A DNA stretch of 64,000 bases from Candidatus Helarchaeota archaeon (GCA_019058315.1 JAHPZH010000002.1:1037910-1101909); one strand, 5' to 3'. Counted from the stretch's first letter, positions 1-62,414 are shown. Numbers and translations: made by a program. The notes: a model not told the origin generated them from the letters alone.

Positions 1-3000
1 AAATTTGCATTGATATTTATATTAAATATTCCATATTTTAGACCGATACTACTTGAAGGATTTTGAATAAAATTTTCTAAATTTTTTTGTACAATATGGT
101 TGAATTCTTCCATATCATTTTTATTTTCTATATTATATTTATCAGAACTTATTCGTGTATCTTTAAAAGAGAGTTCCTTGGTAACTGGATCAAATCTGAT
201 TTGAGAAAAACAATGATTTATATCTTTTTGAAATATACCTTGCCTTCTTAAATTGAATTGAATTATCTCTTCTCCATCCTCAGTTTGTGCCACCCATATT
301 AAACGTTGATTTTCAATATTTACATAAAATAAATATCCTGTTACTGCTTTCTCCCCATTAATGTTCCTACCTACAGCATAACTTTTAGAATATTCACGAT
401 TTATTCTTGATGAGATTTGTGATAATTCTTGTGCTAATTCATCTACAGGAACTTTACCATAAGGATGCTCTAAATGATCTTTTAATGGTTTAAATGGAAC
501 AACACTATAAGAGTGAATACCCATTGCTTGGTCATAAAATTCTGAAGTTGTGGTAATCATATATCTATCTAAAAAAAGTCTATGTTCTGCTAACCGTTGC
601 TCTTGAGCATATATTCTGTTAAATGGACCAAATGGTGTCCCCGATTCTTTGAGCGGGATTAATGGTCCCGCTCCCGGTGCATAACCAGTAGATCCCCACC
701 GCATTAGATTAATAGCGTTATATAAATCAATAGTTTCAGCAGGTACATTAAATATGGCATCATTTAAATTAGCATTAGTTGTACCAATAGCCTCTGTATA
801 TGAGTCTAAGAAGTCGAAAAATTCCTGGTTAGAATGATCAAATGAAAGTACTTTAAAAAATTCTTCAAAGGAAATTTCTGATAATTCTAACATATGTCGG
901 AATTCTTCAACTTCTACTAATTCCTCTTCAATTTCTTCTAAGGATCCTTTTGGAATGTAAATAATTTCCACCTTTTTTATATTTTGCCATTGATTATACT
1001 CACCAATCGCTAGATAGTCCATTTGTTCTCGTCTTACTGCATAAACTTGTTCAATGTCCTCCTCTAAATGACCCGATTTCCATATTCTCAATAAAAAATC
1101 TTCATCATCCCAATTGGGATATGTAGAAGTAAATCCTTTTTCATACCAACTAGGTTTCGTATCAGCACAGGCTTGGACATACATTTTAAGACCTTGATCC
1201 TTTTGAGACAACCATATAAAGTTATTTAATGCGTATTCTCTCATTTCTTTTTTATCTACAGGTAGTAAAAATGTAGCCATTTGTTCAGTTTCACGCATTA
1301 CTTGTTTCGCCCCAGGGAGTTTCCTCCTTAATACAATTACTTTTTGTTTCTCAGGATCCCAAGGCATTAAATGAAAGCAAGCACCTTGTAAACCTGACTC
1401 AATTGCGTATTCTGGATCACCACTTTCTTTTAAAGTTTTATAAAAGCCAGCTGTTGAGTCAAATATTATTTCCCCCAATAAATTATCCACTACTTCTTGA
1501 TAATTTGGACTAGAGGGTGGTAAACCAGCCTCTATTCGAGCTCTCTCCTCTGCATTTTGTCTTATGATTTCTTCTATCATTTTTTGTTTCAATTTTGAAG
1601 CCATCCACTTATGGAAATGGTGACTTCTTTTCATCTCATATTCAGGTGGAAGAGCAGGACGGGTATTGAATTTTTCTACTGCTGCATTATATTCTTCTTT
1701 ACTTAAAAACTCCCATGTATCCCATATATATAACAGCAACCAAATAGGAATTTCAACTTCTCCTTTCTCAGGTTTATAGAATCCGTAATAATAATCATCA
1801 GCAAATTCTTTCATTACAAGTTGAATTTTATCTTCTAATTCAATCTTAATGAAATCAGTAAAATATTCTATAGATAAATCCTCTAAATTTACTCCCACAT
1901 CGTCAAAATAATTTGAAACTATATTGGGAACGGTTAAAAATTCTGGATACATTGCTAAAACAAAATCTTGTACTGATAAATGTCTTATTTGCGCAATTTC
2001 TTGAGCAAAACCACTCCCTGCTTGTATTGTATTATCAATAAAAACTGGAGTTATTTGAGCAATATCTTGTGCAACGGCCCTACCAGCTACTGCACACATT
2101 TCATCAAGTTGTGTATGTGTTATTCCTGATGGAGGTCTAATGGCAGCTCTTGGGACATCATCTAAAAAGTCTGTCGGTTGTCTCGGAATAGATCTTGCTG
2201 GGCCTGTCATTCCTGAAGATGCTACTGGTACTGGTGGAGAAATAAAGGATCCCTCTAAATTTTCATTTAAATCAACAGATATTTGTGATTTAGTCGCCAT
2301 TTCAAAGTCGTTCGAAAATGTAGTTTCTGTAATACCCACACTAGCTTGTAATTTTCCATAATTATTCATGTTAATTGGTGAATTTGTTCGTTCATGGTCT
2401 CGGGTTGCAAAGGAATTAAATTCATTAAATAACTGAATTGGCGCTGTAATATCTGGATTTGATGTCATATCGGGAATGTTGGATTGAGCTGCTATAATTA
2501 AATCCCCTGAAATCATTAAAACACAAACAAAAATAGCGAATAATACCATTTTATTCTTCTTTTTTAAGAAAGTATATAATATAAGTAATGAAATAATTAA
2601 AAATAGACTAATTAACGCTAATAGCGTATAATCAATAGCAAATATATCCTCTAAATATGGTGATATCGATTCTATAGGAAAATCAGGTCTTCTAGACGGA
2701 AATCCCAGTCCATCTTTTATAGGTATTTCTTCTTCAGTAAAATTACCTATAACTATTGTCCCATTTGGAAGTGTCATAAAATTAGGTTCGTAGTTATAAT
2801 GATTACTATTGATATAATTTTCAATATTTCTAGAAATAGCTTGTTGATAAAAAGCTAATTTAAGATAATCTAAATCTGGTCTCAGAGAGGGTAATCCATA
2901 ATTCTGTTGGGCACTCAAGGTTTCAATTGTTTCTTCAAAAGGAGTTTCTCCAAGCCATTTAGTCAAATTCTGGTATTTTTGGTATTGATATAACCCATCT

Positions 3001-5195
3001 GCCTCCCCCAAAATATTTAATGCATCTATTGATAAATATGCATTTTGAATAGATGAAAATGTCCCATCATCTTTTAATTCACTCTCCTCTATTATTTGTT
3101 CTCTTAGAACATCTTTTTCTAATAACATTTTATATATCGTTTCTACCTGTTTCGGTTCAATTATTAATTCTTTTAAAAGGTTTGTAGCGAACCATAATCT
3201 TTCTAAGTTTTCTGCATAAGGTTGGATAATAGAAAGGGAATCATTATCTAAAAAAAACTGTTCATCCCATACCAATTTGATGTCGGAACTTTCTAAAAAT
3301 GATACAAATTGTTGTGTTTTTTGATTTTTACTATAGATATTTTCTAAAGACAGATAATGTAGACCTATTTCTTCTAAACCTCTAATCGGATCAAGAGCTT
3401 TTACCGCGATTATTGCCCAATACTGACTTTCCAAATCTTCTTGCATGATTCGATTCCAAATTATTCGACCTCCAACCATTTCTTTTATCTTTTCATATGC
3501 CATAGGTCTAATGGAGACTATTTCATCTTTTGCATCTATATAATTCAAGATACAAATTGCTTTAGCAGTGATTTCTATATTTGGAGTATCACCAAAAGTT
3601 TCAGAAAATCCTCCCTCAAGTCTCCACCTCTCCATAAGCCAAGAAACAAGTTTATTTCTATTAATATTTTCTAAAAATTTATCCTTTTTACCAAATAAAT
3701 CTAAAAATTGGAAAACTTGATAAGTTGTATCAATAGAAGAATATTCTTCATCTAATGCAAATCCCCCATCCTCAGATTGAAGGCTAGAAAAATATTCAAT
3801 TGTTGGGTCTTCTTTTTTAAATATCGGTGATTCAGATAAGAAATATAACATTAACGCATTGGGACTATTCTGTAAGTTTAAAATATTGATTCCTAATCCC
3901 AAAACCATTATGATTAAAATGGCAATTCCTACAGTAGGTGCTGCTCTTTTTACATATTTTGGCAATTTAATAGGTCTATTCTTTGGTTTTTTAGTCCAGA
4001 TCATCTTTTTGTTGGATTTAAGACTATATTGCTTAAAAATACCTCTCTTTACTGTTTCTTTTGTTTTATTTAGCGCATCTATTATAAAATTTTTAAAATT
4101 TATCACTTTAGTACTTAAAAGCAGCATTTTTTTAGATTTGTTTTGGGAATTTTTACGTAATTTTAAGGGAGTTATAGTATATTTTAGACTAAAATCTTTA
4201 CTGTTAGTCTTTTTATTTTTAATAAAAGATATCAAAGCATTTATTTGATAAATTATGTATTTTAATAAATCAACCTTGTATTCAATCTCTTCGTTTTTCA
4301 AATTTTCTAAGGTTCTATTTTTCAAGATCCTTAAAAGGTCAATTTTTCTGTTGTCAGAATATCCTTTTAATTCTAAAATGTGTTTAGCTTTTTCAAGAAA
4401 AGTTTCTTCTTCCTTTGAATAACCATATTTTCTCCTTAAACCAGCTCTACCAAGTAGACACTCTACTTGAAAAATACTGATAGCATTTGGACATTCAAAC
4501 TCCTTATTTAATTCTCTATCGTGTTCTTTTATCTTTGGATCGCTGTCAAAACTCAAATTTTGGTAATTAATGTCTCTATTTATATTTATTTTATATTTAT
4601 TACGAATTATTTTTAATTTATGTTCTATATTTATAGCATCAAGCTGTCCTTCTAAGAGTTCCTTGAAGAAATCAAAATATTCTTTACTTTCAAAGAGGTA
4701 ATTACTATTATTTTCCTTTGATGCTAAAAATTCATCGACTTTAGCAATCAAATATGAAATACGTGATAAATTTTTGGTTAACTCATGATATTCTTGGATC
4801 CTTTTATCTATATACTTAAATCCATTTAATAATGCATGGAATTTCTGATCAACTTCCATCGTAATATTTCTAAAATGAAGATTATTTAATTCTCCTTCGA
4901 GTTCTTCTAATAAATCAGTCTTAAAATTCGTTAACTCACTTAAGGTTAATTTTGGTTGCTTTTTATATTTCTTTTCAAGAAAATTAATAAAAATATCTAA
5001 CTTTTTATTTTCTAGTCGGGGTTCCCAGATAGAATTATAAAATGCAGCTGATAATATGGAATATATTCTATTTTTAAAAAAATCTTGCTTTTTATAATCG
5101 TTGATATACTTTTCAGCCATTTTTTCACATTCAAAACGATTATGCATACCATTGTCAGTATGATTTCTCGTTATTAACTCAGACTTTGTAATCAT
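1..5195 (-). CDS. Giant multi-pass membrane protein (>=1731 aa, 3' end beyond the window) with prenyltransferase/squalene-oxidase-like repeats
   Basis: Manually translated. ATG at 5195 preceded by AAGGTGA SD-like motif; frame open to position 1 (MITKSELITRNHTDNG...). TM1 AAPTVGIAILIIMVLGLGINIL (~3935-3880); YFSSLQSEDGGF and LVSWLMERWRLEGGFS motifs (~3795-3600); TM2/TM3 separated by KKKNK (~2630-2490). Absent from the ORF track because there is no stop in the window. Confidence 0.9.
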   Translation of the reverse strand, partial: MITKSELITRNHTDNGMHNRFECEKMAEKYINDYKKQDFFKNRIYSILSAAFYNSIWEPRLENKKLDIFINFLEKKYKKQPKLTLSELTNFKTDLLEELEGELNNLHFRNITMEVDQKFHALLNGFKYIDKRIQEYHELTKNLSRISYLIAKVDEFLASKENNSNYLFESKEYFDFFKELLEGQLDAINIEHKLKIIRNKYKININRDINYQNLSFDSDPKIKEHDRELNKEFECPNAISIFQVECLLGRAGLRRKYGYSKEEETFLEKAKHILELKGYSDNRKIDLLRILKNRTLENLKNEEIEYKVDLLKYIIYQINALISFIKNKKTNSKDFSLKYTITPLKLRKNSQNKSKKMLLLSTKVINFKNFIIDALNKTKETVKRGIFKQYSLKSNKKMIWTKKPKNRPIKLPKYVKRAAPTVGIAILIIMVLGLGINILNLQNSPNALMLYFLSESPIFKKEDPTIEYFSSLQSEDGGFALDEEYSSIDTTYQVFQFLDLFGKKDKFLENINRNKLVSWLMERWRLEGGFSETFGDTPNIEITAKAICILNYIDAKDEIVSIRPMAYEKIKEMVGGRIIWNRIMQEDLESQYWAIIAVKALDPIRGLEEIGLHYLSLENIYSKNQKTQQFVSFLESSDIKLVWDEQFFLDNDSLSIIQPYAENLERLWFATNLLKELIIEPKQVETIYKMLLEKDVLREQIIEESELKDDGTFSSIQNAYLSIDALNILGEADGLYQYQKYQNLTKWLGETPFEETIETLSAQQNYGLPSLRPDLDYLKLAFYQQAISRNIENYINSNHYNYEPNFMTLPNGTIVIGNFTEEEIPIKDGLGFPSRRPDFPIESISPYLEDIFAIDYTLLALISLFLIISLLILYTFLKKKNKMVLFAIFVCVLMISGDLIIAAQSNIPDMTSNPDITAPIQLFNEFNSFATRDHERTNSPINMNNYGKLQASVGITETTFSNDFEMATKSQISVDLNENLEGSFISPPVPVASSGMTGPARSIPRQPTDFLDDVPRAAIRPPSGITHTQLDEMCAVAGRAVAQDIAQITPVFIDNTIQAGSGFAQEIAQIRHLSVQDFVLAMYPEFLTVPNIVSNYFDDVGVNLEDLSIEYFTDFIKIELEDKIQLVMKEFADDYYYGFYKPEKGEVEIPIWLLLYIWDTWEFLSKEEYNAAVEKFNTRPALPPEYEMKRSHHFHKWMASKLKQKMIEEIIRQNAEERARIEAGLPPSSPNYQEVVDNLLGEIIFDSTAGFYKTLKESGDPEYAIESGLQGACFHLMPWDPEKQKVIVLRRKLPGAKQVMRETEQMATFLLPVDKKEMREYALNNFIWLSQKDQGLKMYVQACADTKPSWYEKGFTSTYPNWDDEDFLLRIWKSGHLEEDIEQVYAVRREQMDYLAIGEYNQWQNIKKVEIIYIPKGSLEEIEEELVEVEEFRHMLELSEISFEEFFKVLSFDHSNQEFFDFLDSYTEAIGTTNANLNDAIFNVPAETIDLYNAINLMRWGSTGYAPGAGPLIPLKESGTPFGPFNRIYAQEQRLAEHRLFLDRYMITTTSEFYDQAMGIHSYSVVPFKPLKDHLEHPYGKVPVDELAQELSQISSRINREYSKSYAVGRNINGEKAVTGYLFYVNIENQRLIWVAQTEDGEEIIQFNLRRQGIFQKDINHCFSQIRFDPVTKELSFKDTRISSDKYNIENKNDMEEFNHIVQKNLENFIQNPSSSIGLKYGIFNININAN

Positions 5196-6047
5196 TTCAT
5201 TCACCTTAAATTCCCAATTTTTTTGAATTTGAATTGAAAAAATTATAAAATTCGAAAAATACAAATTAATTTAAATAGATTTTATACAAAAAATACTTGA
5301 AATTTGCAAAGTTTTCATAAAATTTTGTGATTTCTTTGATACTATATTTATTAAAATAATGGGTTCTGAAACCAGAATTGGAAATATTGGGGGATCTGGA
5401 TCCAAAGTATGGGGTAACCTCACTTATATACCCTTTAGTAGAATCTATATTAGAAGATAAACTTAATTTATATGAAACTTCTATATATGAATTAAGATTA
5501 AAATCCTTACAAAAATGTAAGTAGAGATTAAACAACAATATCTTTTACCTGCTACTTTTAAACCTAAAAACTCCCATTTAAATTTGAAAAAATCAATTTT
5601 TTAGGGATAGATAATGTCTTTTGAATTTATATTTAAATTCTTCGAACTAATGATACATATTATATAATATCTATTAGATATTCACGATTATTCATTGTGA
5701 AATTCTTAATAATTATTGTAAAATTTCCAAAAAATAACTACATTTTAATGCGATTTTTATAATGAATAATATTCAATTCACAAAAAATCTCTTATTATAA
5801 AAATAAAGGAATTCATTTAGGTATATTATTAAATCATTTTCATTCTTACCTAATTTAATTTTTATAAGAGGAAAAAATTAATAAAAACTATAATTAATTT
5901 GAATTTCTTATAAAAGACGCTTCTATAATTAAATTTTAAATATATTTCGTCATTTGATTTACTAAATACTTATTTCTTTAATATAACTAACAAAAAAACT
6001 TATCAAGTTTTTATATAATAAGTTAATAACAATAATACTTGATGTGA

Positions 6048-53502: not shown

Positions 53503-54918
53503 TTAAACTATCGGAATCAAATTAATATTTGGATAATCTACTTCTAAAGCTAACGGATATTTAAAGTAAGGTTTTATTATTTCTAAAATAACACATCCAT
53601 CCATTCTTTCTAAGTTAAAATGATAATCACATTGATTTAACGAATATTGTAAAGCTTTTGAACCTTTTTTTATAAATAAAACATTTAAATTTCCCCCCAT
53701 ACGTGATACTTCTATGTTTTTCTCTTGAATTGGGATGTAGACATCAAGGGGATACTTGATTTCTAATGATCCAAGACTAGAAAAAAGTTGAATAATGTGT
53801 CCATCTGAAGAATTATCTATTAAATATCTTGCAGTTTCATTGTAAAGATTAATATCCAATTCTAAATTGCTACCATGAGTATATTTAATAAAAGGCTTTT
53901 CTATTTTAAAAAAATTATTTTCCTCTTTAAAAATTAAGACTTTTTTATTAAATACTTCTTCCGAGACTAATGGAACAAGATCATTAAAATATTTCATGGC
54001 ATATTCCTCCCCAGCTGGAGCTATTGTGCAAGTTCGCCCATGTTTCAGAAAATTTAGAATGGTTTGATAGACTAGAGTCTTTGGAAATATATCTGAAATC
54101 CCATCTCCTATCTCGAAAACGATAAAGGATCCCTTTCTATAACCCCCATTTAGAATATTATCTAATTGATGATTTCCTGTCGAGAAACAATCTCCAGAAT
54201 CTTCTATTTTTTGAAAACTACCCTGTTTAATTTTTGGATATAGGGGTTCGAAATTTCTGAATCTGCCGTTATTTAAAGTGAATATATATTCATGCTGAGC
54301 TACTTCTACGCCTCTAAGCTTTTCAATATGCATTTCTCGGATTCTTTTTTTTCGAGCCCTTTTTCCAAACCCTATACGTTTCAAAGTTATGATTCCATCC
54401 ACTATATAGTCTAAATAGGTTTCACTTTCTGTTTCCGTAACTAAAAATAATTTAATCTTCTTTTGTCGAACCATTTCACTTAGAAATGATTCTATTTTAC
54501 CCTCGATAATTGAGGATGATTGGGAATATTTAAGGAGTGTACTCCATGCGTCGATAACGACAAAGGGGTGTTCTAGATTTTTAGTTCTGTGATAGATGAC
54601 TTGTAAGAATTCAGGTAGATCTTTGAACCTAATAATTGATTCAAAGTATGTTTCTGTATCTGTTGAAATATAAGCTAGTTGAGTGATATCAAACATATTT
54701 TCTGGTTTAATTGCATCTTTTATCCAAGGAAACTGATGTTTTAAAGAAAGAGGGCTAACTCTAGTTGAGAAATATAGTGGATTTTCCGATCTAGAAAGTA
54801 ATTCCAAAACTAATGTAGTTTTACCAGAACCTGCTATACCTTTTACTAAAATCGAATACCCATAGGGTTTATTAATAGCCTCGACTAATTCTTTCGGAAT
54901 ATTATCCATACCTCTCAC
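53503..54918 (-). CDS. GvpD-like RAD55/KaiC-family ATPase (duplicated domain, second degenerate)
   Basis: GYSILVKGIAGSGKTT, STRVS, VVIDAW, LDYIVDGIITL...IEKLRG, FSTGNHQLDNILNGGY. Confidence 0.88.
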   Translation of the reverse strand: MRGMDNIPKELVEAINKPYGYSILVKGIAGSGKTTLVLELLSRSENPLYFSTRVSPLSLKHQFPWIKDAIKPENMFDITQLAYISTDTETYFESIIRFKDLPEFLQVIYHRTKNLEHPFVVIDAWSTLLKYSQSSSIIEGKIESFLSEMVRQKKIKLFLVTETESETYLDYIVDGIITLKRIGFGKRARKKRIREMHIEKLRGVEVAQHEYIFTLNNGRFRNFEPLYPKIKQGSFQKIEDSGDCFSTGNHQLDNILNGGYRKGSFIVFEIGDGISDIFPKTLVYQTILNFLKHGRTCTIAPAGEEYAMKYFNDLVPLVSEEVFNKKVLIFKEENNFFKIEKPFIKYTHGSNLELDINLYNETARYLIDNSSDGHIIQLFSSLGSLEIKYPLDVYIPIQEKNIEVSRMGGNLNVLFIKKGSKALQYSLNQCDYHFNLERMDGCVILEIIKPYFKYPLALEVDYPNINLIPIV

Positions 54919-55152: not shown

Positions 55153-55389
55153 ATGTTTCAAATAGAAGAAGCACCCACGGGCACCACTAAATGTGATTGG
55201 TGTGGGGAGCTTATTAAAAAAGGCACACTTAGACTAAGATTTGCCCCGCCAAAAGGTTACAATTATTATTGGCATCAAGATTGCGGGATAAAATATTTGG
55301 AAGGACTAAAAATTATGTTAAAAAATGGCGAAAAAGGTCATATTGGTCGAGAAGAAGCAGATAAAGCTCGGAAAGATGTGAGGTTATAA
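55153..55389 (+). CDS. Stand-alone PARP-type zinc-finger protein
   Basis: IEEAPTGTTKCDWCGELIKKGTLRL...WHQDC (C-x2-C-x23-H-x2-C); GAGGA SD-like motif. Confidence 0.75.
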   Translation: MFQIEEAPTGTTKCDWCGELIKKGTLRLRFAPPKGYNYYWHQDCGIKYLEGLKIMLKNGEKGHIGREEADKARKDVRL

Positions 55390-55730: not shown

Positions 55731-57404
55731 TTGGATGAAATAAGTTTTTCTTCTGCTTTGAAAAAAATGAAAAAGGTTCGTATTATTCGTTTAAAAAGCA
55801 TTTTATTTGAATTATACGGTTTTGAAATGAATAAATATGAAGTAGCAAAAATTGTGGGAGTTACACCCCAAGCCATTGGACCAGAAATCGATTTTTTGGA
55901 GAATGTCGATCTTCTTAAGAAAACAAGGGTGGAGAAACGCAGAGGTCTTCCATCTTTTTATTATACATTAAATATTGAATCATTAATTGATAGTCTAAAT
56001 CTAGATAGCGATGAAAAAGGTATTTTAAAAGAGGGGCTTATTCGTCTTCAGAATGCTTACCGGCAATTAAAAAACTTGGAAAAAGACAGAAAAATTTCTA
56101 AGATAGAAAGCAGTTTGTATGAAGGAATAGTTCCAAATGACTATAAAATGTTTAATCTACAATTTATTAGTTCCATTTTAATAATTGCTGCACTTCTTTT
56201 CGATTTTGGATTTTCAATGCTACCTGATTTTCTTAAAAATAACCAACAATTGTTTTTTATTCTGCAAAATTATTCCAATGAATTACGAGATAACCTAAAA
56301 ATTGATGATCTGGATATGAATAACTGGATTAATGAAAATATCAAATCAATTAGTAATATTTACCAAAAAATTTGGAATGAGTTGATGCAGGCGATAGTAT
56401 TAAAATCAATTATTCAAGAGCCAAGTATGAAAATTATGGATAAGTTTGAAGAGACTAAGGAAGAAGATTTGAAGGTTAAGGTCGAAAAATTTCGAAATTA
56501 CAAAAAACAAAAGATAAAATTTAACGAAATTATTACAGAAGAAACAAATATTAAAAATAAATGTGATCAGAATTTAAGATCGACCGTTAATACCTTACTA
56601 GGGATTCAAAAGAAAGTATTAAAGGATAAAATAATTGGAAATAAATTAGATACTATTTATAATAAACTTTCATCTTTATCAACTAAATTAAAATCAACTT
56701 CTCTAGGAATGACATCATTTGGTACAGAAACAGAAAAAATCGAAGCAGTTAATATTAAAATTGCAATTCTTAAAGCATTAAATGAAGAAGTCGATGAATT
56801 AAAAGACCATTTAGCAAATATGGACCAATCAATTGACTATGGAAATTATGATGAAGTTGAAATACAAATAAAATCACTTTTTTCAATCACCCGAAATTTG
56901 GATAAATTTCAAAATTGGTATATAGATCCAAAAGAATTTCTTGAAAAACCTGCTGAAAAAACTAAAATTGATAAAAATGAATTGGATAATAAGATTTTAG
57001 CTTTAGTAAATAAAAATAAGCGTAATAATATAATTTTATTAAACGATTTTATTGCAGAATTTAGTTCAGCATATCCAAATTTTAGAATTACAAAGAACCA
57101 AATCGTCAAAGGAATACAAAGATTAAGTCAAAAATCAATTTATCCTCAAATTGAATCAATCAAATTGGAGAAGAAAAAAGAAAAGGTTATACGTTTGGAT
57201 TCGACAGATAAGGACCAAATTGAAATACTTCAAATTGCTAACGCTACAAATGGTAGGGTAACAATAGAAGGTCTACAACTACAATTAGATTGGCCTGTCT
57301 ATCGTGCAAAAGTTGTTTTGGAAGATTTAGTTAGTAACAATAAATTACATTTTAAAAGTACACGATCAGAGGGTGATGTGTATTATATTCCAGGAGTGTT
57401 ATAA
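55731..57404 (+). CDS. HTH - helical bundle - ESCRT-II Vps22/36 (EAP30)-like tandem winged-helix fusion protein
   Basis: N-terminal MNKYEVAKIVGVTPQAIGPEIDFLENVDLL...FYYTLN (ArsR-like wHTH). C-terminal DQIEILQIANATNGRVTIEGLQLQLDWPVYRAKVVLEDLVSNN...YYIPG fits the Vps22/SNF8 pattern. Confidence 0.75.
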   Translation: MDEISFSSALKKMKKVRIIRLKSILFELYGFEMNKYEVAKIVGVTPQAIGPEIDFLENVDLLKKTRVEKRRGLPSFYYTLNIESLIDSLNLDSDEKGILKEGLIRLQNAYRQLKNLEKDRKISKIESSLYEGIVPNDYKMFNLQFISSILIIAALLFDFGFSMLPDFLKNNQQLFFILQNYSNELRDNLKIDDLDMNNWINENIKSISNIYQKIWNELMQAIVLKSIIQEPSMKIMDKFEETKEEDLKVKVEKFRNYKKQKIKFNEIITEETNIKNKCDQNLRSTVNTLLGIQKKVLKDKIIGNKLDTIYNKLSSLSTKLKSTSLGMTSFGTETEKIEAVNIKIAILKALNEEVDELKDHLANMDQSIDYGNYDEVEIQIKSLFSITRNLDKFQNWYIDPKEFLEKPAEKTKIDKNELDNKILALVNKNKRNNIILLNDFIAEFSSAYPNFRITKNQIVKGIQRLSQKSIYPQIESIKLEKKKEKVIRLDSTDKDQIEILQIANATNGRVTIEGLQLQLDWPVYRAKVVLEDLVSNNKLHFKSTRSEGDVYYIPGVL

Positions 57405-57407
57405 AAA

Positions 57408-58115
57408 ATGAGTGATATGATAACTTGGGATTATGCAACTAATAAAGGCATAGTATATAGATGCCCTGTAGATAAGAAACATAAAGGATTTATTGTAAAA
57501 CAAGGTTTTGAGCAAGCTCTATGGATACGTAATGGAATTTTATATGATACGATTTCTGGAATTTCCTATAAATTTAAGAAAGGTGAAAAAGAGGGCAGTG
57601 AAATAATCTATGTAAAACTTGGAGATATTAAGATTAATTGGGGAATTCCTAAAAATAATGGTATAATCACAGTCGATGGAATAAAAATAGGCGGTCATGG
57701 AGATGTTATCGTTAAAATTTTAAATCCTGCAGATTTCGTATTTAATCTTGCAGGCTCAGTAGGTCAAGAATTTGTGGAATCAGTCGAAAAAGAAATATTC
57801 ATAAAAGGAGAGAAAAATAAGGAAAAAGTTCTTCGTAAAAAAGTGCAAAAAGACGAAATTGATGTTAAAGATGCGAAACGGGCATTAGAAGCTTTTTTAT
57901 TTACAAAAACTGATTTAAAAAATTGGCTAGTCAATGTTATTCGTAGTTCTCTACGTGACAAACTTTCAAAATTAACATTAAATGAACTTCTAAAAGTTGA
58001 CATAAGTGAAGTTGAAAGAGATTTACGTATAAAAAATACAGATGTATTTCAAAGTTGGGGTTTGGAGCTTAAATCTTTTAGTATAATCGGATGGCAATTA
58101 CCAAATAATTTCTGA
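57408..58115 (+). CDS. SPFH/Band-7 domain protein, YdjI-type
   Basis: FIVKQG-EQALWIRNG...IIYVK...INWG...GGHG...KILNPADFV...LR...WGLELKSFSI. Confidence 0.8.
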   Translation: MSDMITWDYATNKGIVYRCPVDKKHKGFIVKQGFEQALWIRNGILYDTISGISYKFKKGEKEGSEIIYVKLGDIKINWGIPKNNGIITVDGIKIGGHGDVIVKILNPADFVFNLAGSVGQEFVESVEKEIFIKGEKNKEKVLRKKVQKDEIDVKDAKRALEAFLFTKTDLKNWLVNVIRSSLRDKLSKLTLNELLKVDISEVERDLRIKNTDVFQSWGLELKSFSIIGWQLPNNF

Positions 58116-58117
58116 CG

Positions 58118-60478
58118 ATGATTTATATGAGTAATAACCCAGAAATTAAATATGACGGAGTTCTTTATTATCTTCCATTATATGAAGATGAAATCGTAAG
58201 AAATATAGTCAGTGCGGATAAACGAGTCAAAAGACGTAAGGATCTTGATGGCTATATCATTTTAACAAATTACAGATTTATCTTCATGGAAAGGAAAAAA
58301 GATTTAGAATATCACCTTTCAAGCTTTTTCTATTATAAAGATATTGAAAATATTAGACTTGGTGGAGTTGTCAATAAATTTATACAAATTAATGGTGTTC
58401 TATTTCATCCAAAGGATGTTTCAGTAGATTACTTAAGAAGTTCAATTAATAAATTCACAATAGAAGCAAAAAAACAAATCTTTTCATTTGAGCCAATGCC
58501 AGAAGAAGAACCCTTTCCTGAAGTTGAAATCAGCGATAAAAATATGTTTAATAAAGTTACAAACCTCTTCATTTCGATTTTTTCAACAATAATTGGACTT
58601 TTTTTAGTATTAAACTCTGCTTTATCTTTTTATTTTGGACCACATGCTTATTTGCCATTTGTAACCTCTATATTAGGAGTCGTTTTCTCTTCAATTATAA
58701 TGGGTGTCATAAATCATGAGAATAATAAAGATAATTTTTCAGAGGAATATTTTGATTCGCTAAAAAACACACTTTACTTTTCTATTTTAAGTCTTACATT
58801 TACTAGTGTAGGTTTGGGGCTTGATGGTCACTATGGACTGGCATTCAATTTATTTAGTATTAGATACAACTCCGCTCTCCTGATATTCGTCGTTTATTTA
58901 ACAATTGGAGTTCTTCTAATGTTTAAAAATGGAATTAATTTCTCAAATTTATTTAACGAGCCAGAGAATCCATATAATGAATTTAATAATAGAATTTTTG
59001 AAGAATTTGAATCTGAGAAGTTTCAAAACCGATCAAAAATGATATTTATTGTTTTTATCACTTTAATTGCAATACAAATGTTAATTTTAATCCTTTACAA
59101 CTTATTTCCTGGTGGCGGTATATATTTGGTCTTTTCATGGACTTTCTCTCAAACCCCAGCTCCCTTGGATGTTAGAAGTATCATTCCTGGTAATAGCTAT
59201 TATCTATTTAATCCTCTATTTTCAGGTGCAACAATTGTCGTTGGAATTTTTGGATTAATTTTAACTGCAATTATTCAAGCTCGAAATATTGGATATTTAA
59301 GATATTATTCTCTAGATATTTACAACACACTAAAAAACCGAGTTAGAGACAAAACCAATAGAATGAAATTGTTAAAAGAAAGAATTTTAAATAAAACACA
59401 AAATATTCTTAAACAAATGCATGCAGCTGTTACAGGAGTTGCAGAAAAGTCTATCCCAATAACGGAACAAGAAAGACGAATACCTATTGAAGTAAATGAT
59501 CAGAAAAAAATTGAAAAAATACATGTCGTGCCAAATTCAACAAATTCGAACTCTTTAATAAATCAAGTATCTGTTCAAGATAAATCTACTGAAATTCCAA
59601 TTATGGTAACTAAAGAAGAAGAAATCCCAATACCCGAAATAAAAAAACAAGAGCTCGTAGAGAGGATTATCGGAAAAATTGAAGTAAAACGTGGGGGACT
59701 AATAAAAGGAAGTGAATATTTATATAAAGTAAAAGTGGAAAATTTGTCTAATTCAGTAATCACCGATTTAAGAATCATAATAACTTCATATCCCGATGAT
59801 AGCTTAAAAATTGTAGGTTCAGAATTGCAAAAAAGATCAAAATTAACTCCTGGTGAAATGGTTTCCCCGTCTTTTACATTTCGGCCTACTGAAGATTGTA
59901 TTGTCGGAAAAATTAATTCAATTGTAACGTATTTAGATGCAAGAGGTGAATCACAACAAATAAGCATAGAACCTCTTATTATACGCTTTATTTGCGGTCT
60001 TTTAACTCCCCTTCCCATTAAAGCAGAAGAATTTGATCAAATAGTCAAAAAATTATTAAATTATTCGAATGCTGGGGAAGAGCTCGAATTGCCTCATAGC
60101 GCAAAGAGTATTTATGAAAAAGCAAAAGTATTATTGCCACAAAATAACTTTTATCTTATTTCCGCGGAGGATCATGAGGTTGCTTCTAATTTTATTGGTA
60201 TATTAAAAGGATTTGCTGCAGGACAATATTCTCATAAAAAAGTGGGTACACAAATAACTGTTACAGGTAAAAAAAATGAGAATTTTTGTGCTGCTCGAAT
60301 AGATGGATATACAGAAGATGCATCCATGTTAACACCTCTAATTTCGGAGCTAAAAAATGATATAAGAAGCTGGAATTGTGAGCAATGTGGAGCGCAATTA
60401 AGTGATACTCAAATTAAGAAAATATTAGATGGTAAAATTGTTCGATGTAAATATTGTGATGAGATATTAAAAATATAA
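58118..60478 (+). CDS. PH-like - ~6 TM - adaptin/COP appendage-like (Ig + platform) - Zn ribbon protein
   Basis: GYIILTNYRFIF...YKDIENI (PH/GRAM-like); six hydrophobic helices; YKVKVEN...LTPGE...FTFRP...TYLD...LTPLPIKAEEF; CEQC...CKYC. Confidence 0.7.
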   Translation: MIYMSNNPEIKYDGVLYYLPLYEDEIVRNIVSADKRVKRRKDLDGYIILTNYRFIFMERKKDLEYHLSSFFYYKDIENIRLGGVVNKFIQINGVLFHPKDVSVDYLRSSINKFTIEAKKQIFSFEPMPEEEPFPEVEISDKNMFNKVTNLFISIFSTIIGLFLVLNSALSFYFGPHAYLPFVTSILGVVFSSIIMGVINHENNKDNFSEEYFDSLKNTLYFSILSLTFTSVGLGLDGHYGLAFNLFSIRYNSALLIFVVYLTIGVLLMFKNGINFSNLFNEPENPYNEFNNRIFEEFESEKFQNRSKMIFIVFITLIAIQMLILILYNLFPGGGIYLVFSWTFSQTPAPLDVRSIIPGNSYYLFNPLFSGATIVVGIFGLILTAIIQARNIGYLRYYSLDIYNTLKNRVRDKTNRMKLLKERILNKTQNILKQMHAAVTGVAEKSIPITEQERRIPIEVNDQKKIEKIHVVPNSTNSNSLINQVSVQDKSTEIPIMVTKEEEIPIPEIKKQELVERIIGKIEVKRGGLIKGSEYLYKVKVENLSNSVITDLRIIITSYPDDSLKIVGSELQKRSKLTPGEMVSPSFTFRPTEDCIVGKINSIVTYLDARGESQQISIEPLIIRFICGLLTPLPIKAEEFDQIVKKLLNYSNAGEELELPHSAKSIYEKAKVLLPQNNFYLISAEDHEVASNFIGILKGFAAGQYSHKKVGTQITVTGKKNENFCAARIDGYTEDASMLTPLISELKNDIRSWNCEQCGAQLSDTQIKKILDGKIVRCKYCDEILKI

Positions 60479-60485
60479 AAATTCT

Positions 60486-62414
60486 TTATACTGGTAAACT
60501 TAAAGGTTCATAATCCTCAATTTTTTTCTGCTTTTTTTTCGTTTTGGTTATTTTTTTAGCCCGTTTTGTTTTTTTGACCTTTTTTATTTTTTTCTTTTTA
60601 ATTTTTCCTGTCTTTTTCTTTTTTTTAGTCTTTTTACTTATTTTCTTTTTACTTTTTATGACTTTTTTTGCTTTTTTAACCTTTTTAACCTTTATTTTCT
60701 TTGGTTTAGGTTTTTCAAAAGTTTTTTCTACCTTTTTCCCAATCGGCTTCGGAATTGGTTCAATTTCTATAGGTTCTTCTATTTTTTCAACCTTTAGCTC
60801 TTTTACTTTTTTAATTTTTTTATTTTTTTTAGCTTTTTTCTTTTTGATCTTTTTTATTTTTTTTGCTTTTTTAGCTTTTTTAACCTTAATTTTCTTTGGT
60901 TTAGGTTTTTCAATAATTTTTTCTACCTTTTTCTCAATTGGTTTCGGGATTGGTTCAATTTCTATGGGTTCTTCTATTTTTTCAACCTTTAGCTCTTTTA
61001 CTTTTTTAATTTTTTTAGCTTTTTTCTTTTTGATCTTCTTTATTTTTTTTGCTTTTTTAGCTTTTTTAACCTTAATTTTCTTTGGTTTAGGTTTTTCAAT
61101 AATTTTTTCTACCTTTTTCTCAATTGGTTTCGGGATTGGTTCAATTTCTATGGGTTCTTCTATTTTTTCAACCTTTAGCTCTTTTACTTTTTTAATTTTT
61201 TTAGCTTTTTTACCCTTCTTTATCCTTTTTACCTTTGGTTTTTTGATTTTCCTTATTTTTTTAGCTTTTTTCTTTTTGATCTTCTTTATTTTTTTAGCTT
61301 TTTTAGCCTTTTTAGCTTTAATTTTCTTCGGTTTAGGTTTTTCAATAATTTTTTCTACCTTTTTCTCAATAGGTTTCGGGATTGGTTCAATTTCTATGGG
61401 TTCTTCTATTTTTTCAACCTTTAGCTCTTCTACTTTCTTGATCTTTTTTATCTTTTTTATTTTTGGCTTTTTACGTTTCTTTACCTTTTTAATTTTTTTC
61501 TTTTTAACTTTTTTAACCTTTTTCTTCTTTATTTTTTTAACTTTTTTTGGTTTTGGCTTTACTTTTTTTACCTTTTTAACTTTAACCTTCTTTAATTTAG
61601 GTTTCTTAATCTCAACTTCTATAGGTTCTTCCTCGATTTTAATAGGAGGTTTGATTACTTCAGGAGGTGTTATAACTGGTTTAGTTATAGATTTTGAAAT
61701 TGGTTTAGTAATAAGTTTGGTTATGGGTTTGCTTACAGGTTTGGTTATTGGTCTTGTTACGGGTTTGATATTTGGTTTGGTTATAGGTTTAGTTACAGGT
61801 TTAGTTATGGATTTTGTTACGGGTTTAATAATTGGTTTGGTTATAGGTTCAGTTATGGGTTTTATTACGGGTTTAATAATTGGTTTGGTTATGGGCTTGG
61901 TTACAGGTTTAGTTATGGGTTTAGCAATTATTTTTTCTTTTATAATTTGTGTTGGTTCTGTATCAATGGGTGAACTTAATATCTCCTCCTCAAATTCTGA
62001 TGGATGAGTTAATTCTTCTACAATTTTATGAATTGATGCTGTCATTTCTAATTCAAGCATACCTTCTTCTTCATCAGATACTGGTTCAACAGTAGTTGTT
62101 AATTTTGGTTCTACAGTAGTTGTAACTTCTGGTTCTACAGTAGTTGTAACTTCTGGTTCTATAGTAGTTGTAATTTCTGGTTCTACAGTAGTTATAGAAG
62201 GTTCTACTTTCAAAGGGTCTTTAACGATTTCTAAAGTTGGTAATGGAGTCAAGAAGAAAATAAATTTTTCAGGACAATAATTTTCATGAATATTTAGAAA
62301 TTCTCTTCTAATTTTTTTGAAGGTTTGAACCATTTCTAACCTATGTAAAGTATAATCCGATCGAAATGCAAAATCAGAACCCTTTACTTCTCTAAACTTT
62401 ATCTCTTCCTTCAT
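60486..62414 (-). CDS. Low-complexity Lys-rich repeat protein (histone H1-like composition)
   Basis: 642 aa; TTTVEPE repeats, KP(I/V)T repeats, then four KELKVEKIEEPIEIEPIPKPIEKK blocks separated by poly-Lys stretches. Confidence 0.8.
   Translation of the reverse strand: MKEEIKFREVKGSDFAFRSDYTLHRLEMVQTFKKIRREFLNIHENYCPEKFIFFLTPLPTLEIVKDPLKVEPSITTVEPEITTTIEPEVTTTVEPEVTTTVEPKLTTTVEPVSDEEEGMLELEMTASIHKIVEELTHPSEFEEEILSSPIDTEPTQIIKEKIIAKPITKPVTKPITKPIIKPVIKPITEPITKPIIKPVTKSITKPVTKPITKPNIKPVTRPITKPVSKPITKLITKPISKSITKPVITPPEVIKPPIKIEEEPIEVEIKKPKLKKVKVKKVKKVKPKPKKVKKIKKKKVKKVKKKKIKKVKKRKKPKIKKIKKIKKVEELKVEKIEEPIEIEPIPKPIEKKVEKIIEKPKPKKIKAKKAKKAKKIKKIKKKKAKKIRKIKKPKVKRIKKGKKAKKIKKVKELKVEKIEEPIEIEPIPKPIEKKVEKIIEKPKPKKIKVKKAKKAKKIKKIKKKKAKKIKKVKELKVEKIEEPIEIEPIPKPIEKKVEKIIEKPKPKKIKVKKAKKAKKIKKIKKKKAKKNKKIKKVKELKVEKIEEPIEIEPIPKPIGKKVEKTFEKPKPKKIKVKKVKKAKKVIKSKKKISKKTKKKKKTGKIKKKKIKKVKKTKRAKKITKTKKKQKKIEDYEPLSLPV
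60700..61430. repeat. Four near-identical intragenic DNA repeat units
   Basis: GGTTCAATTTCTA anchor at 60757, 60952, 61138 and 61384 (spacings 195, 186, 246 bp, all multiples of 3). Confidence 0.85.
62083..62207. repeat. 24-bp tandem repeat encoding (V/I)TTTVEPE
   Basis: GGTTCTACAGTAGTTGTAACTTCT-type unit repeated ~4-5 times. Confidence 0.8.

Follow-up and report, generated by a model that had tools for sequence, protein, structure and literature searches.

A three-gene locus of Helarchaeales encoding an ESCRT-II-type (EAP30) protein, an SPFH protein and a PH-like membrane protein: a candidate membrane complex

Three neighbouring plus-strand genes were analysed in a 64,000-nucleotide stretch of DNA from Candidatus Helarchaeota archaeon (GCA_019058315.1, JAHPZH010000002.1; the whole stretch is referred to as the window). 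They encode a long paralogue of Vps22 and Vps36, which are subunits of the endosomal sorting complex ESCRT-II (gene 1), an SPFH protein (gene 2), and a polytopic membrane protein (gene 3) whose head is PH-like and which ends in a C-terminal tail module. In the interpretation that we favour, at about even confidence, the three genes constitute one operon conserved in Helarchaeales, which most likely encodes a complex at the cytoplasmic face of the membrane with ESCRT-II-type docking. The source genome, labelled G000, comprises 5.79 Mb in 12 contigs and is 94% complete with ~29% G+C, and the window corresponds to G000:C5:1037910-1101909. Throughout, G-numbers denote Asgard genomes, L-numbers related loci, C-numbers contigs, and f-numbers families, while P0005 and P0013 are database records. 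Feature coordinates are provided in Table 1.

Gene 1 belongs to the EAP30 family according to four methods, namely Pfam scans, a profile search against the Protein Data Bank (PDB), and two fold comparisons. The Pfam EAP30 model matched residues 417–537 with an E-value of 8.6e-6 and 26.1 bits in hmmscan, against a cut-off of 26.8, and reached 27.2 bits, above that cut-off, in a six-frame scan of the genome; by Pfam, membership is thus marginal, whereas family profiles make it clear. The C-terminal 153 residues of seven orthologues were used to build a profile; against all PDB sequences, it gave significant matches only to human SNF8/Vps22 (6.4e-6 and 1.3e-5) and yeast Vps22 (3e-4), with generic winged helices at E-values above 0.07. 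The Asgard Vps22 profile, in turn, aligned with gene 1 residues 342–560 at 4e-16 (4e-16 to 4.7e-18 across profile versions). Because the significant PDB matches were all to Vps22 and the Asgard profile aligns with gene 1, its C-terminus is closer to EAP30 than to a generic winged helix-turn-helix (wHTH), as the first-pass annotation of this DNA had proposed. The tandem winged-helix fold of the ESCRT-II core was likewise found in the AlphaFold2 (AF2) model by Foldseek and VIA. A full-length gene 1 profile (alignment A1) matched open reading frames (ORFs) in 287 of 400 Asgard genomes, mostly Vps22-like and of ~245 residues, and nearly all matches listed run through approximately positions 415–557. 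The EAP30 domain is 60–80% identical among close orthologues, and the orthologues (34–81% identity, eight clusters) were found only in metagenome-assembled genomes (MAGs) of Helarchaeota/Promethearchaeota.

Canonical ESCRT genes are encoded elsewhere in this genome. Contig C10 carries a ThiF–ubiquitin fusion, a UEV/E2 gene, Vps25 (275 residues), Vps4, three Snf7 (ESCRT-III) genes and a HerA-like ATPase, but no Vps22 was found on it. Gene 1 lies on contig C5, outside this ESCRT/ubiquitin cluster, unlike canonical Asgard Vps22 genes; the initial remark that Vps25, ESCRT-III and Vps4 are not near the trio was thus correct, C10 being where they reside. For a search of the order, sequences from within it were added to a canonical Vps22 profile. 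This search recovered full-length Vps22 (1e-82 to 1e-112) adjoining Vps25 in the sister family f3, whereas no full-length canonical Vps22 was detected in family f1, represented by G000 and G128 (both 94% complete). Within f1, the G000 matches were just a short form from contig C3 and gene 1, and those in G128 were all gene-1-type proteins; Vps25 is present in both genomes. Although this absence is a non-detection in two genomes of 94% completeness, it makes gene 1 a serious contender for the role of Vps25 partner.

At least six Helarchaeales contigs contain the trio, at identities down to 34%. It occurs in L009 and L010 with the same flanks, in L007 and L008 at 34% identity with different flanks, and in L076 from G128; the predicted conservation in other genomes was therefore confirmed, with gene order and spacing kept in these five loci. 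It is also indicated on a 5,170-bp contig common to P0005 and P0013, where locus tags 11915 and 11925 leave space for one gene between them. In the window, the three co-oriented genes nearly abut, with gaps of 3 and 2 bp exactly as first annotated. The second gap is more likely 11 bp, because gene 3 homologues begin at Met4 (position 58127) and the database record comprises 783 residues. Gaps of 1–12 bp are preserved across the trio in L007, L009 and L010. As with gene 1, orthologues of gene 3 were found only in Helarchaeota/Promethearchaeota MAGs (five clusters).

In a wider frame, the trio is a Helarchaeales elaboration of a Lokiarchaeial gene pair, consisting of a long Vps22 paralogue followed by an SPFH gene, and not the free-standing module initially envisaged. 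The SPFH subfamily of gene 2 is present in 39 of the 161 genomes of the class, and in 22 of the 29 foreign loci examined, the ORF immediately upstream, on the same strand, has ~430–470 residues and ends in an EAP30 domain. These pairs are homologous to genes 1 and 2 and share their order, strand and spacing. The Lokiarchaeial versions of gene 1 (~460 residues) differ from the present one in lacking both the N-terminal wHTH and a transmembrane (TM) segment, the latter being absent from four of four full-length examples. Their SPFH proteins possess a C-terminal coiled-coil tail, which gene 2 does not, and the gene that follows is not constant (it may encode a Zn-ribbon, PCI or TPR protein, and in one case a ThiF-type E1 lies two genes downstream) and never encodes a protein with a PH-like head, six TM helices and the module. 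No SPFH gene was found beside canonical Vps22 in seven loci of other Asgard classes, nor in sister family f3. Our literature search found no paper describing the pair of long Vps22 paralogue and SPFH, or EAP30 with SPFH in archaea; likewise, the accessible portions of the literature on Asgard SPFH and ESCRT-II, partly titles and abstracts, held no passage tying SPFH to an EAP30 protein.

G000 has just two EAP30 genes, and each abuts one of the two SPFH genes of this subfamily in the genome. The only gene 2 paralogue of the genome, on contig C3, encodes 342 residues and directly adjoins the only other EAP30 gene (176–190 residues). This C3 locus (G000:C3:248953-251812; L040 4953-7812, minus strand) contains co-directional genes for a 166-residue coiled-coil protein, the 342-residue SPFH protein (Band_7, 67.7 bits; Band_7_1, 55.6 bits), a 176-residue EAP30 protein (33.3 bits) and a 245-residue double-Zn-ribbon protein, and therefore has the same parts list as the trio in unfused form. 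Its short EAP30 protein is the best G000 match to canonical Asgard Vps22 and lacks the first ~60 profile positions. A paralogous pair was also observed in L075 (G128:C8; 3-7576, minus strand), with a 495-residue gene 1' containing a hydrophobic helix and a 248-residue SPFH gene 2', after which comes a giant ORF (>1,748 residues; signal peptide, NHL/PQQ beta-propellers) in place of a gene-3-type protein. In family f31 (L077–L080, from G328, G312, G319 and G386), proteins of ~780 residues have a C-terminal EAP30 domain that matches the Asgard Vps22 profile at 1e-33 to 1e-40. These fusions were rejected as further SPFH pairs, as their 3' gene encodes a protein of ~265–310 residues with five to six TM helices.

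The C-terminal residues 413–557 of gene 1 share the tandem winged helix, by profile and by fold, with the ESCRT-II stalk subunits Vps22/SNF8 and Vps36 (EAP30, PF04157; PDB 3cuq, 2zme and 1u5t), and the helices ahead of the domain align with the N-terminal helices of the ~245-residue Asgard Vps22. In contrast to these subunits, gene 1 extends to 557 residues, with an additional winged helix, a hydrophobic anchor and ~230 residues of coiled-coil-like helices, and it is encoded with an SPFH gene instead of Vps25, Vps23 or Vps28. Its N-terminal domain (residues 15–85) gave a weak PadR match (E-value 0.11) and is conserved in alignment A1. It is missing from the Lokiarchaeial relatives, which the gene 1 profile matches only from approximately position 226 onward. 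The hydrophobic helix, also not present in these relatives, is found in the G128 orthologue and in a G128 paralogue. For the long helical region, VIA returned helical-bundle matches only. As a side observation, a third class of EAP30-related C-termini occurs in family f1, in proteins of ~630–650 residues (G000:C5:494799-496697, plus strand, and a 648-residue ORF in G128:C24), the last ~60 residues of which match only the second winged helix of Vps22 (6e-8 to 7e-13).

This succession of membrane anchor, long helix and winged helices also recalls DDRGK1/UFL1, and gene 1 might, as a functional analogue of these, belong to a membrane platform for UFM1-type tagging instead of ESCRT. We regard this as very improbable. 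A UFL1–DDRGK1 chimera did appear among the Foldseek matches of gene 1 (E-value 0.04), and in one Lokiarchaeial locus a ThiF-type E1 gene comes after the pair, and in another a PCI protein; however, no Pfam DDRGK or UFL1 match was obtained at E-values up to 1, and no gene for a ubiquitin-like protein, E1 or E2 flanks the operon in the window, L007, L009 or L010.

The region upstream of gene 1 bears on a further alternative. The self-complementary box TTTATATAAA, which is present in the window in two copies in all, occurs as two copies separated by 1–7 nucleotides upstream of the gene 1 orthologues in L009, L010 and L007. The box probably serves as the operon promoter and possibly as part of an operator. 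If the latter applied, gene 1 could be a tethered one-component regulator, with its N-terminal winged helix binding the upstream palindrome and its C-terminal winged helices serving in dimerisation or partner sensing, so that genes 2 and 3 would act as effector and sensor of a self-regulated SPFH operon for membrane stress or quality control, without any ESCRT link. The paired boxes would suit such a regulator, as would the addition of the N-terminal winged helix and the hydrophobic helix specifically in this lineage. Yet TTTATATAAA may equally be a plain archaeal TATA box, and the promoter is shared with a divergent gene in three loci; moreover, the wHTH call itself is weak (PadR at 0.11, predicted local distance difference test (pLDDT) values of 47–64). 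The clear Vps22 relationship of an EAP30 domain that is 60–80% identical in close orthologues, together with the retention of Vps25 in a family without canonical Vps22, also counts against the regulator, which we deem unlikely.

Gene 2 is an SPFH protein, as first annotated. Band_7 scored 29.3 bits against a cut-off of 23.6, and a profile of its 26-sequence subfamily (alignment A6) matched stomatin at 6.4e-10, and also flotillin-2, Pyrococcus horikoshii stomatin and QmcA. The narrower label "YdjI-type" did not apply to the protein itself, for which Band_7_1 (PF13421) reached 17 bits, below the cut-off of 24, but it does suit its nearest relatives, with 55.6 bits for the C3 paralogue and 45 bits for a Lokiarchaeial protein from L071. 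No hydrophobic segment or membrane anchor of its own was detected in gene 2 by hydropathy.

For gene 3, the PH-like domain, six TM helices and zinc ribbon noted at the outset were substantiated by the AF2 model, hydropathy and the nearly invariant cysteines. The model was computed from a six-sequence alignment and has a mean pLDDT of 49, with the N-terminal 120 residues and the membrane part being usable; the wide VIA search with it covered residues 12–122 and 145–401. The head consists of a seven-stranded beta-sandwich with a C-terminal helix cap and thus matches the PH superfold (PH, GRAM, GLUE and PTB). Hydropathy and loop charges are compatible with both termini inside, which places them on the predicted cytoplasmic face. 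The linker (~80 residues) that follows the membrane part appears in the model as a flexible tether. It leads to a strongly conserved C-terminal module of ~270 residues, predicted to contain a beta-sandwich, helices plus two strands, and a CxxC...CxxC ribbon. This region is modelled at pLDDT values of 25–40, too low for use, with a secondary structure compatible with strands followed by alpha/beta. Several members of the module family gave weak Pfam Zn_ribbon matches.

This C-terminal module is not particular to the operon; it is a widespread, membrane-adjacent cytoplasmic tail found on hundreds of Asgard membrane proteins. The gene 3 profile (alignment A3) matched 159 of the 400 Asgard genomes at 1e-3 or better, with the strongest foreign matches at 1e-95; nearly all of these run through the tail module, inside ORFs of ~120 to 2,465 residues, and the complete gene 3 architecture was found only in G000 and G128. 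Exhaustive searching with a module profile yielded 715 clusters (50% identity), of which 190 lie below 1e-30. Their N-terminal partners, ectodomains or cytosolic domains, include beta-helices, several types of beta-propeller (some with BBS2/BBS7/PTHB1-like Pfam matches), TPR solenoids and Ig repeats. Among 127 family representatives with at least 120 residues ahead of the module, 95 have an upstream hydrophobic segment, which in 83 lies within 130 residues of the module; 43 resemble single-pass proteins with a large ectodomain and 36 are polytopic. The median distance between the end of the module and the C-terminus is six residues, and the assignment of the module as a cytoplasmic tail follows from this location and from its place after hydrophobic segments. 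In G000, the module was located at window positions 59648–60475 and in paralogues at G000:C3:1426350-1428203 and G000:C1:265441-267417.

This distribution also accommodates a reading in which gene 3 is a client and not a partner, with the EAP30 and SPFH proteins sorting, clustering or turning over gene 3, and the tail module acting as a sorting tag for other machinery to read. The very varied N-termini (beta-helix, beta-propeller, TPR, polytopic) across the 715 clusters, the usual position of the module, which follows the final hydrophobic segment by no more than 130 residues and stops ~6 residues before the C-terminus, and the change of third gene after the EAP30–SPFH pair between lineages would all suit a client. 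Against this, the tight spacing of gene 3 with genes 1 and 2 persists even where identity is down to 34% and the flanks differ, and two other module-bearing paralogues in G000 seem solitary, with opposite-strand flanks and no large co-directional abutting ORF. This role for gene 3 is accordingly judged decidedly unlikely.

The tail module probably has an appendage-like fold of the adaptin/COPI type. Genome scans with PF02883, PF09066 and PF05753 gave no match to gene 3, although a distant paralogue encoded on contig C11 gave a weak PF02883 match in its Ig domain (17.9 bits). The module profile had no match among PDB sequences, and a Pfam scan of 15 module sequences at E-values up to 10 returned only Zn-ribbon and weak TRAP_beta matches, the latter, including that to the Ig part of gene 3, at 0.01–0.02. 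With protein-language-model features of gene 3 residues 520–750, nine of the ten best named clusters were appendages of alpha-, beta2- and AP-3 adaptin and of beta- and gamma-COP; their scores of 0.79–0.86 fall below the mark of 0.9, so this resemblance is a consistent lead and not a finding. In Makarova et al. (2024, mBio; PMC10936438), a euryarchaeal counterpart family is named "Adaptin (TRAP-beta) appendage domain"; HHpred matched it to beta-COP and beta2-adaptin at probabilities of 98%, and Zn-ribbon and TM-linked versions as well as appendage regions in many Asgard proteins are described. With adaptin, COPI and GGA ears, and with the GAE-plus-platform of the BBSome, the module would share a beta-sandwich and a subsequent alpha/beta subdomain, borne on the tip of a flexible linker. 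Relatives of the module are also fused to beta-propellers with BBS2/7/9-like Pfam matches or to TPR solenoids. The gene 3 module differs from adaptin/COPI ears in having no Pfam or PDB sequence match and in bearing a C-terminal Zn ribbon, and it mostly lies directly after a TM segment, while those ears are carried by soluble coat subunits.

Table 1. Features of the three-gene locus, with positions in the window and the basis of each assignment.
Feature	Position	Strand	Description	Basis
TATA-like box TTTATATAAA	55663–55672	+	59 nucleotides 5' of the gene 1 start	One of two copies in the 64-kb window
Gene 1	55731–57404	+	557 residues, TTG start; long Vps22/36 (EAP30) paralogue with extra N-terminal winged helix and hydrophobic segment	ORF; orthologues; AF2 model
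Gene 1, residues 15–85	55773–55985	+	N-terminal winged-helix-like domain	Helix-helix-strand-strand in AF2 model, low pLDDT (47–64)
Gene 1, residues 141–164	56151–56222	+	Single hydrophobic helix, putative membrane anchor	Kyte-Doolittle peak 2.15; no charge bias on either flank
Gene 1, residues 172–400	56244–56930	+	Long helical, coiled-coil-like region (~230 residues)	AF2 helices 172–188, 194–229, 264–295, 300–322, 333–369, 373–398
Gene 1, residues 413–557	56967–57401	+	ESCRT-II-type (EAP30) tandem winged helix	Profiles and fold comparison
Gene 2	57408–58115	+	235 residues; soluble SPFH/Band 7 protein with 45-residue charged insert at residues 122–167	Band_7 profile, hydropathy, alignment
Gene 3	58118–60478	+	786 residues; PH-like head, six TM helices, linker and a C-terminal module that includes a Zn ribbon; the conserved start is probably at Met4 (58127)	ORF; homologues; AF2 model
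Gene 3, residues 12–122	58151–58483	+	PH-superfold domain, predicted cytoplasmic	
Gene 3, residues 140–387	58535–59278	+	Six TM helices	AF2 helices 140–169, 175–198, 209–239, 252–276, 299–329, 361–387
Gene 3, residues 388–520	59279–59677	+	Basic membrane-adjacent helix, then poorly conserved linker	Alignment A3 columns ~430–540 variable and gapped; pLDDT 22–35
Gene 3, residues 521–750	59678–60367	+	Beta-sandwich and alpha/beta "platform" module; candidate adaptin/COPI-appendage-like fold	Profile searches
Gene 3, residues 752–783	60371–60466	+	C4 zinc ribbon	CxxC...CxxC almost invariant in alignment A4

The trio is bounded at its 3' side by a convergent gene (60486–62414), and at its 5' side by an 812-bp AT-rich spacer, beyond which lies a divergent gene for a GvpD/KaiC-like P-loop ATPase (53503–54918, minus strand; GvpD_P-loop 61 bits, KaiC 55 bits). 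The ATPase gene is kept as the upstream neighbour in L009 and L010 and not in L007. The spacer contains a 78-residue ORF (55153–55389, plus strand) with a CxxC...HxxC motif and a weak zf-PARP match under the cut-off (E-value 0.001, 20.3 bits). No counterpart of it is kept upstream of gene 1 in L007, L009 or L010, and a conserved fourth upstream gene was rejected, the ORF being unrelated to the 60-residue ORF in L007. At the opposite end of the window, a giant ORF of more than 1,754 residues (3–5264, minus strand) extends past the window start.

The closest published analogue of the trio is the "Meth_adaptin" ESCRT locus of Methanosarcinales-type archaea (PMC10936438). In these euryarchaeal loci, winged-helix, SPFH, and appendage plus Zn-ribbon proteins co-occur, so that the parts list is already published. 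Parts in common are the SPFH protein, an ESCRT component and, probably, adaptin (TRAP-beta)-appendage proteins that carry a Zn ribbon, a TM linker or both; the Ig part of gene 3 gives the same weak TRAP_beta signal. The gene 3 module was likened to the corresponding family, arCOG15284, through the parts list and this signal, and not through a direct sequence match. The "Meth_adaptin" loci are, by that account, centred on Vps4 and ESCRT-III, neither of which occurs in the trio locus or any related locus, and their SPFH protein bears a coiled coil and a Zn ribbon, unlike gene 2. What is novel here is the variant that the trio represents; its kind is already known from the ESCRT-II paralogues of Asgard archaea and from SPFH and appendage components associated with archaeal ESCRT.

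A second analogue is the pspA-ydjGHI (samGHI) operon of Bacillus subtilis, in which, according to the abstract of PMC13713150, membrane proteins recruit a cytosolic SPFH protein. In both systems, an anchorless cytosolic SPFH protein is encoded with membrane proteins, one of them with a Zn ribbon, and in Bacillus it is tied to an ESCRT-III-superfamily system (PMC10936438 and PMC13713150). The Bacillus operon includes a PspA/ESCRT-III gene, whereas the trio has none and its putative ESCRT link is through the ESCRT-II-type domain; furthermore, the membrane partners of the SPFH protein are unrelated in sequence between the two.

By analogy with SamG/SamH (YdjG/H) and SamI (YdjI), genes 1 and 3 may hold the anchorless SPFH protein at the membrane, where its assembly would mark a membrane patch. 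Gene 1 would then offer, through its EAP30 tandem winged helix, an ESCRT-II-type docking surface for Vps25 and, through Vps25, for ESCRT-III and Vps4, all acting in trans, and the gene 3 tail would serve as a protein-binding hub. The N-terminal winged helix and hydrophobic anchor of gene 1 were gained in the Helarchaeales lineage, and the operon may supply ESCRT-II function in a family without full-length canonical Vps22. The complex prediction for gene 1 residues 244–557 with gene 2, based on alignments of 28 and 26 sequences, scored 0.11 against a mark of 0.32 and is evidence neither way.

Several observations weigh against a membrane complex with ESCRT-II-type docking. No ESCRT, ubiquitin or Psp gene was found in or beside the operon, and the complete trio is limited to one or two families; in G125, from the second one, the gene 1 N-terminus lies at a contig end. 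Cage-forming SPFH proteins use a C-terminal coiled coil, and gene 2, which has none, ends where its Lokiarchaeial relatives start their coiled-coil tail. The single hydrophobic helix of gene 1 has no charge bias, and a true span would put the wHTH and the EAP30 domain on opposite sides of the membrane, which fits poorly with an ESCRT-II role unless the helix forms a re-entrant hairpin.

Eukaryotic Vps36 is targeted to membranes by its GLUE domain, and, to our knowledge, Asgard Vps22-like proteins have no such domain. Compared with Vps36, gene 1 also lacks GLUE, and a PH-like domain is found on the neighbouring membrane protein, gene 3. A bolder version of the favoured interpretation, which we consider unlikely, would hold that canonical Vps22 was lost or truncated in Helarchaeaceae, that gene 1 is the working, membrane-tethered ESCRT-II stalk at an SPFH patch, that the PH-like domain of gene 3 is the GLUE counterpart in trans, and that the ear-like tail is a hub for cargo or accessory proteins. 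If true, it would represent a living archaeal case of ESCRT-II membrane targeting and ear-type sorting modules acting jointly.

Two features of the locus deserve attention, namely an EAP30 protein tethered to the membrane, in a lineage where no full-length Vps22 was found, and a very large family of probable ear-like tails, which, if truly appendage-like, bears on the origin of adaptor ears. We know of no partner of archaeal SPFH scaffolds. One transcription unit here appears to join an ESCRT-II-type domain, a scaffold of the SPFH type, a PH-like domain and what is probably an ear-type hub, and thereby provides concrete pairs for binding tests, as well as a testable candidate for how the ESCRT machinery may first have become tied to membranes.

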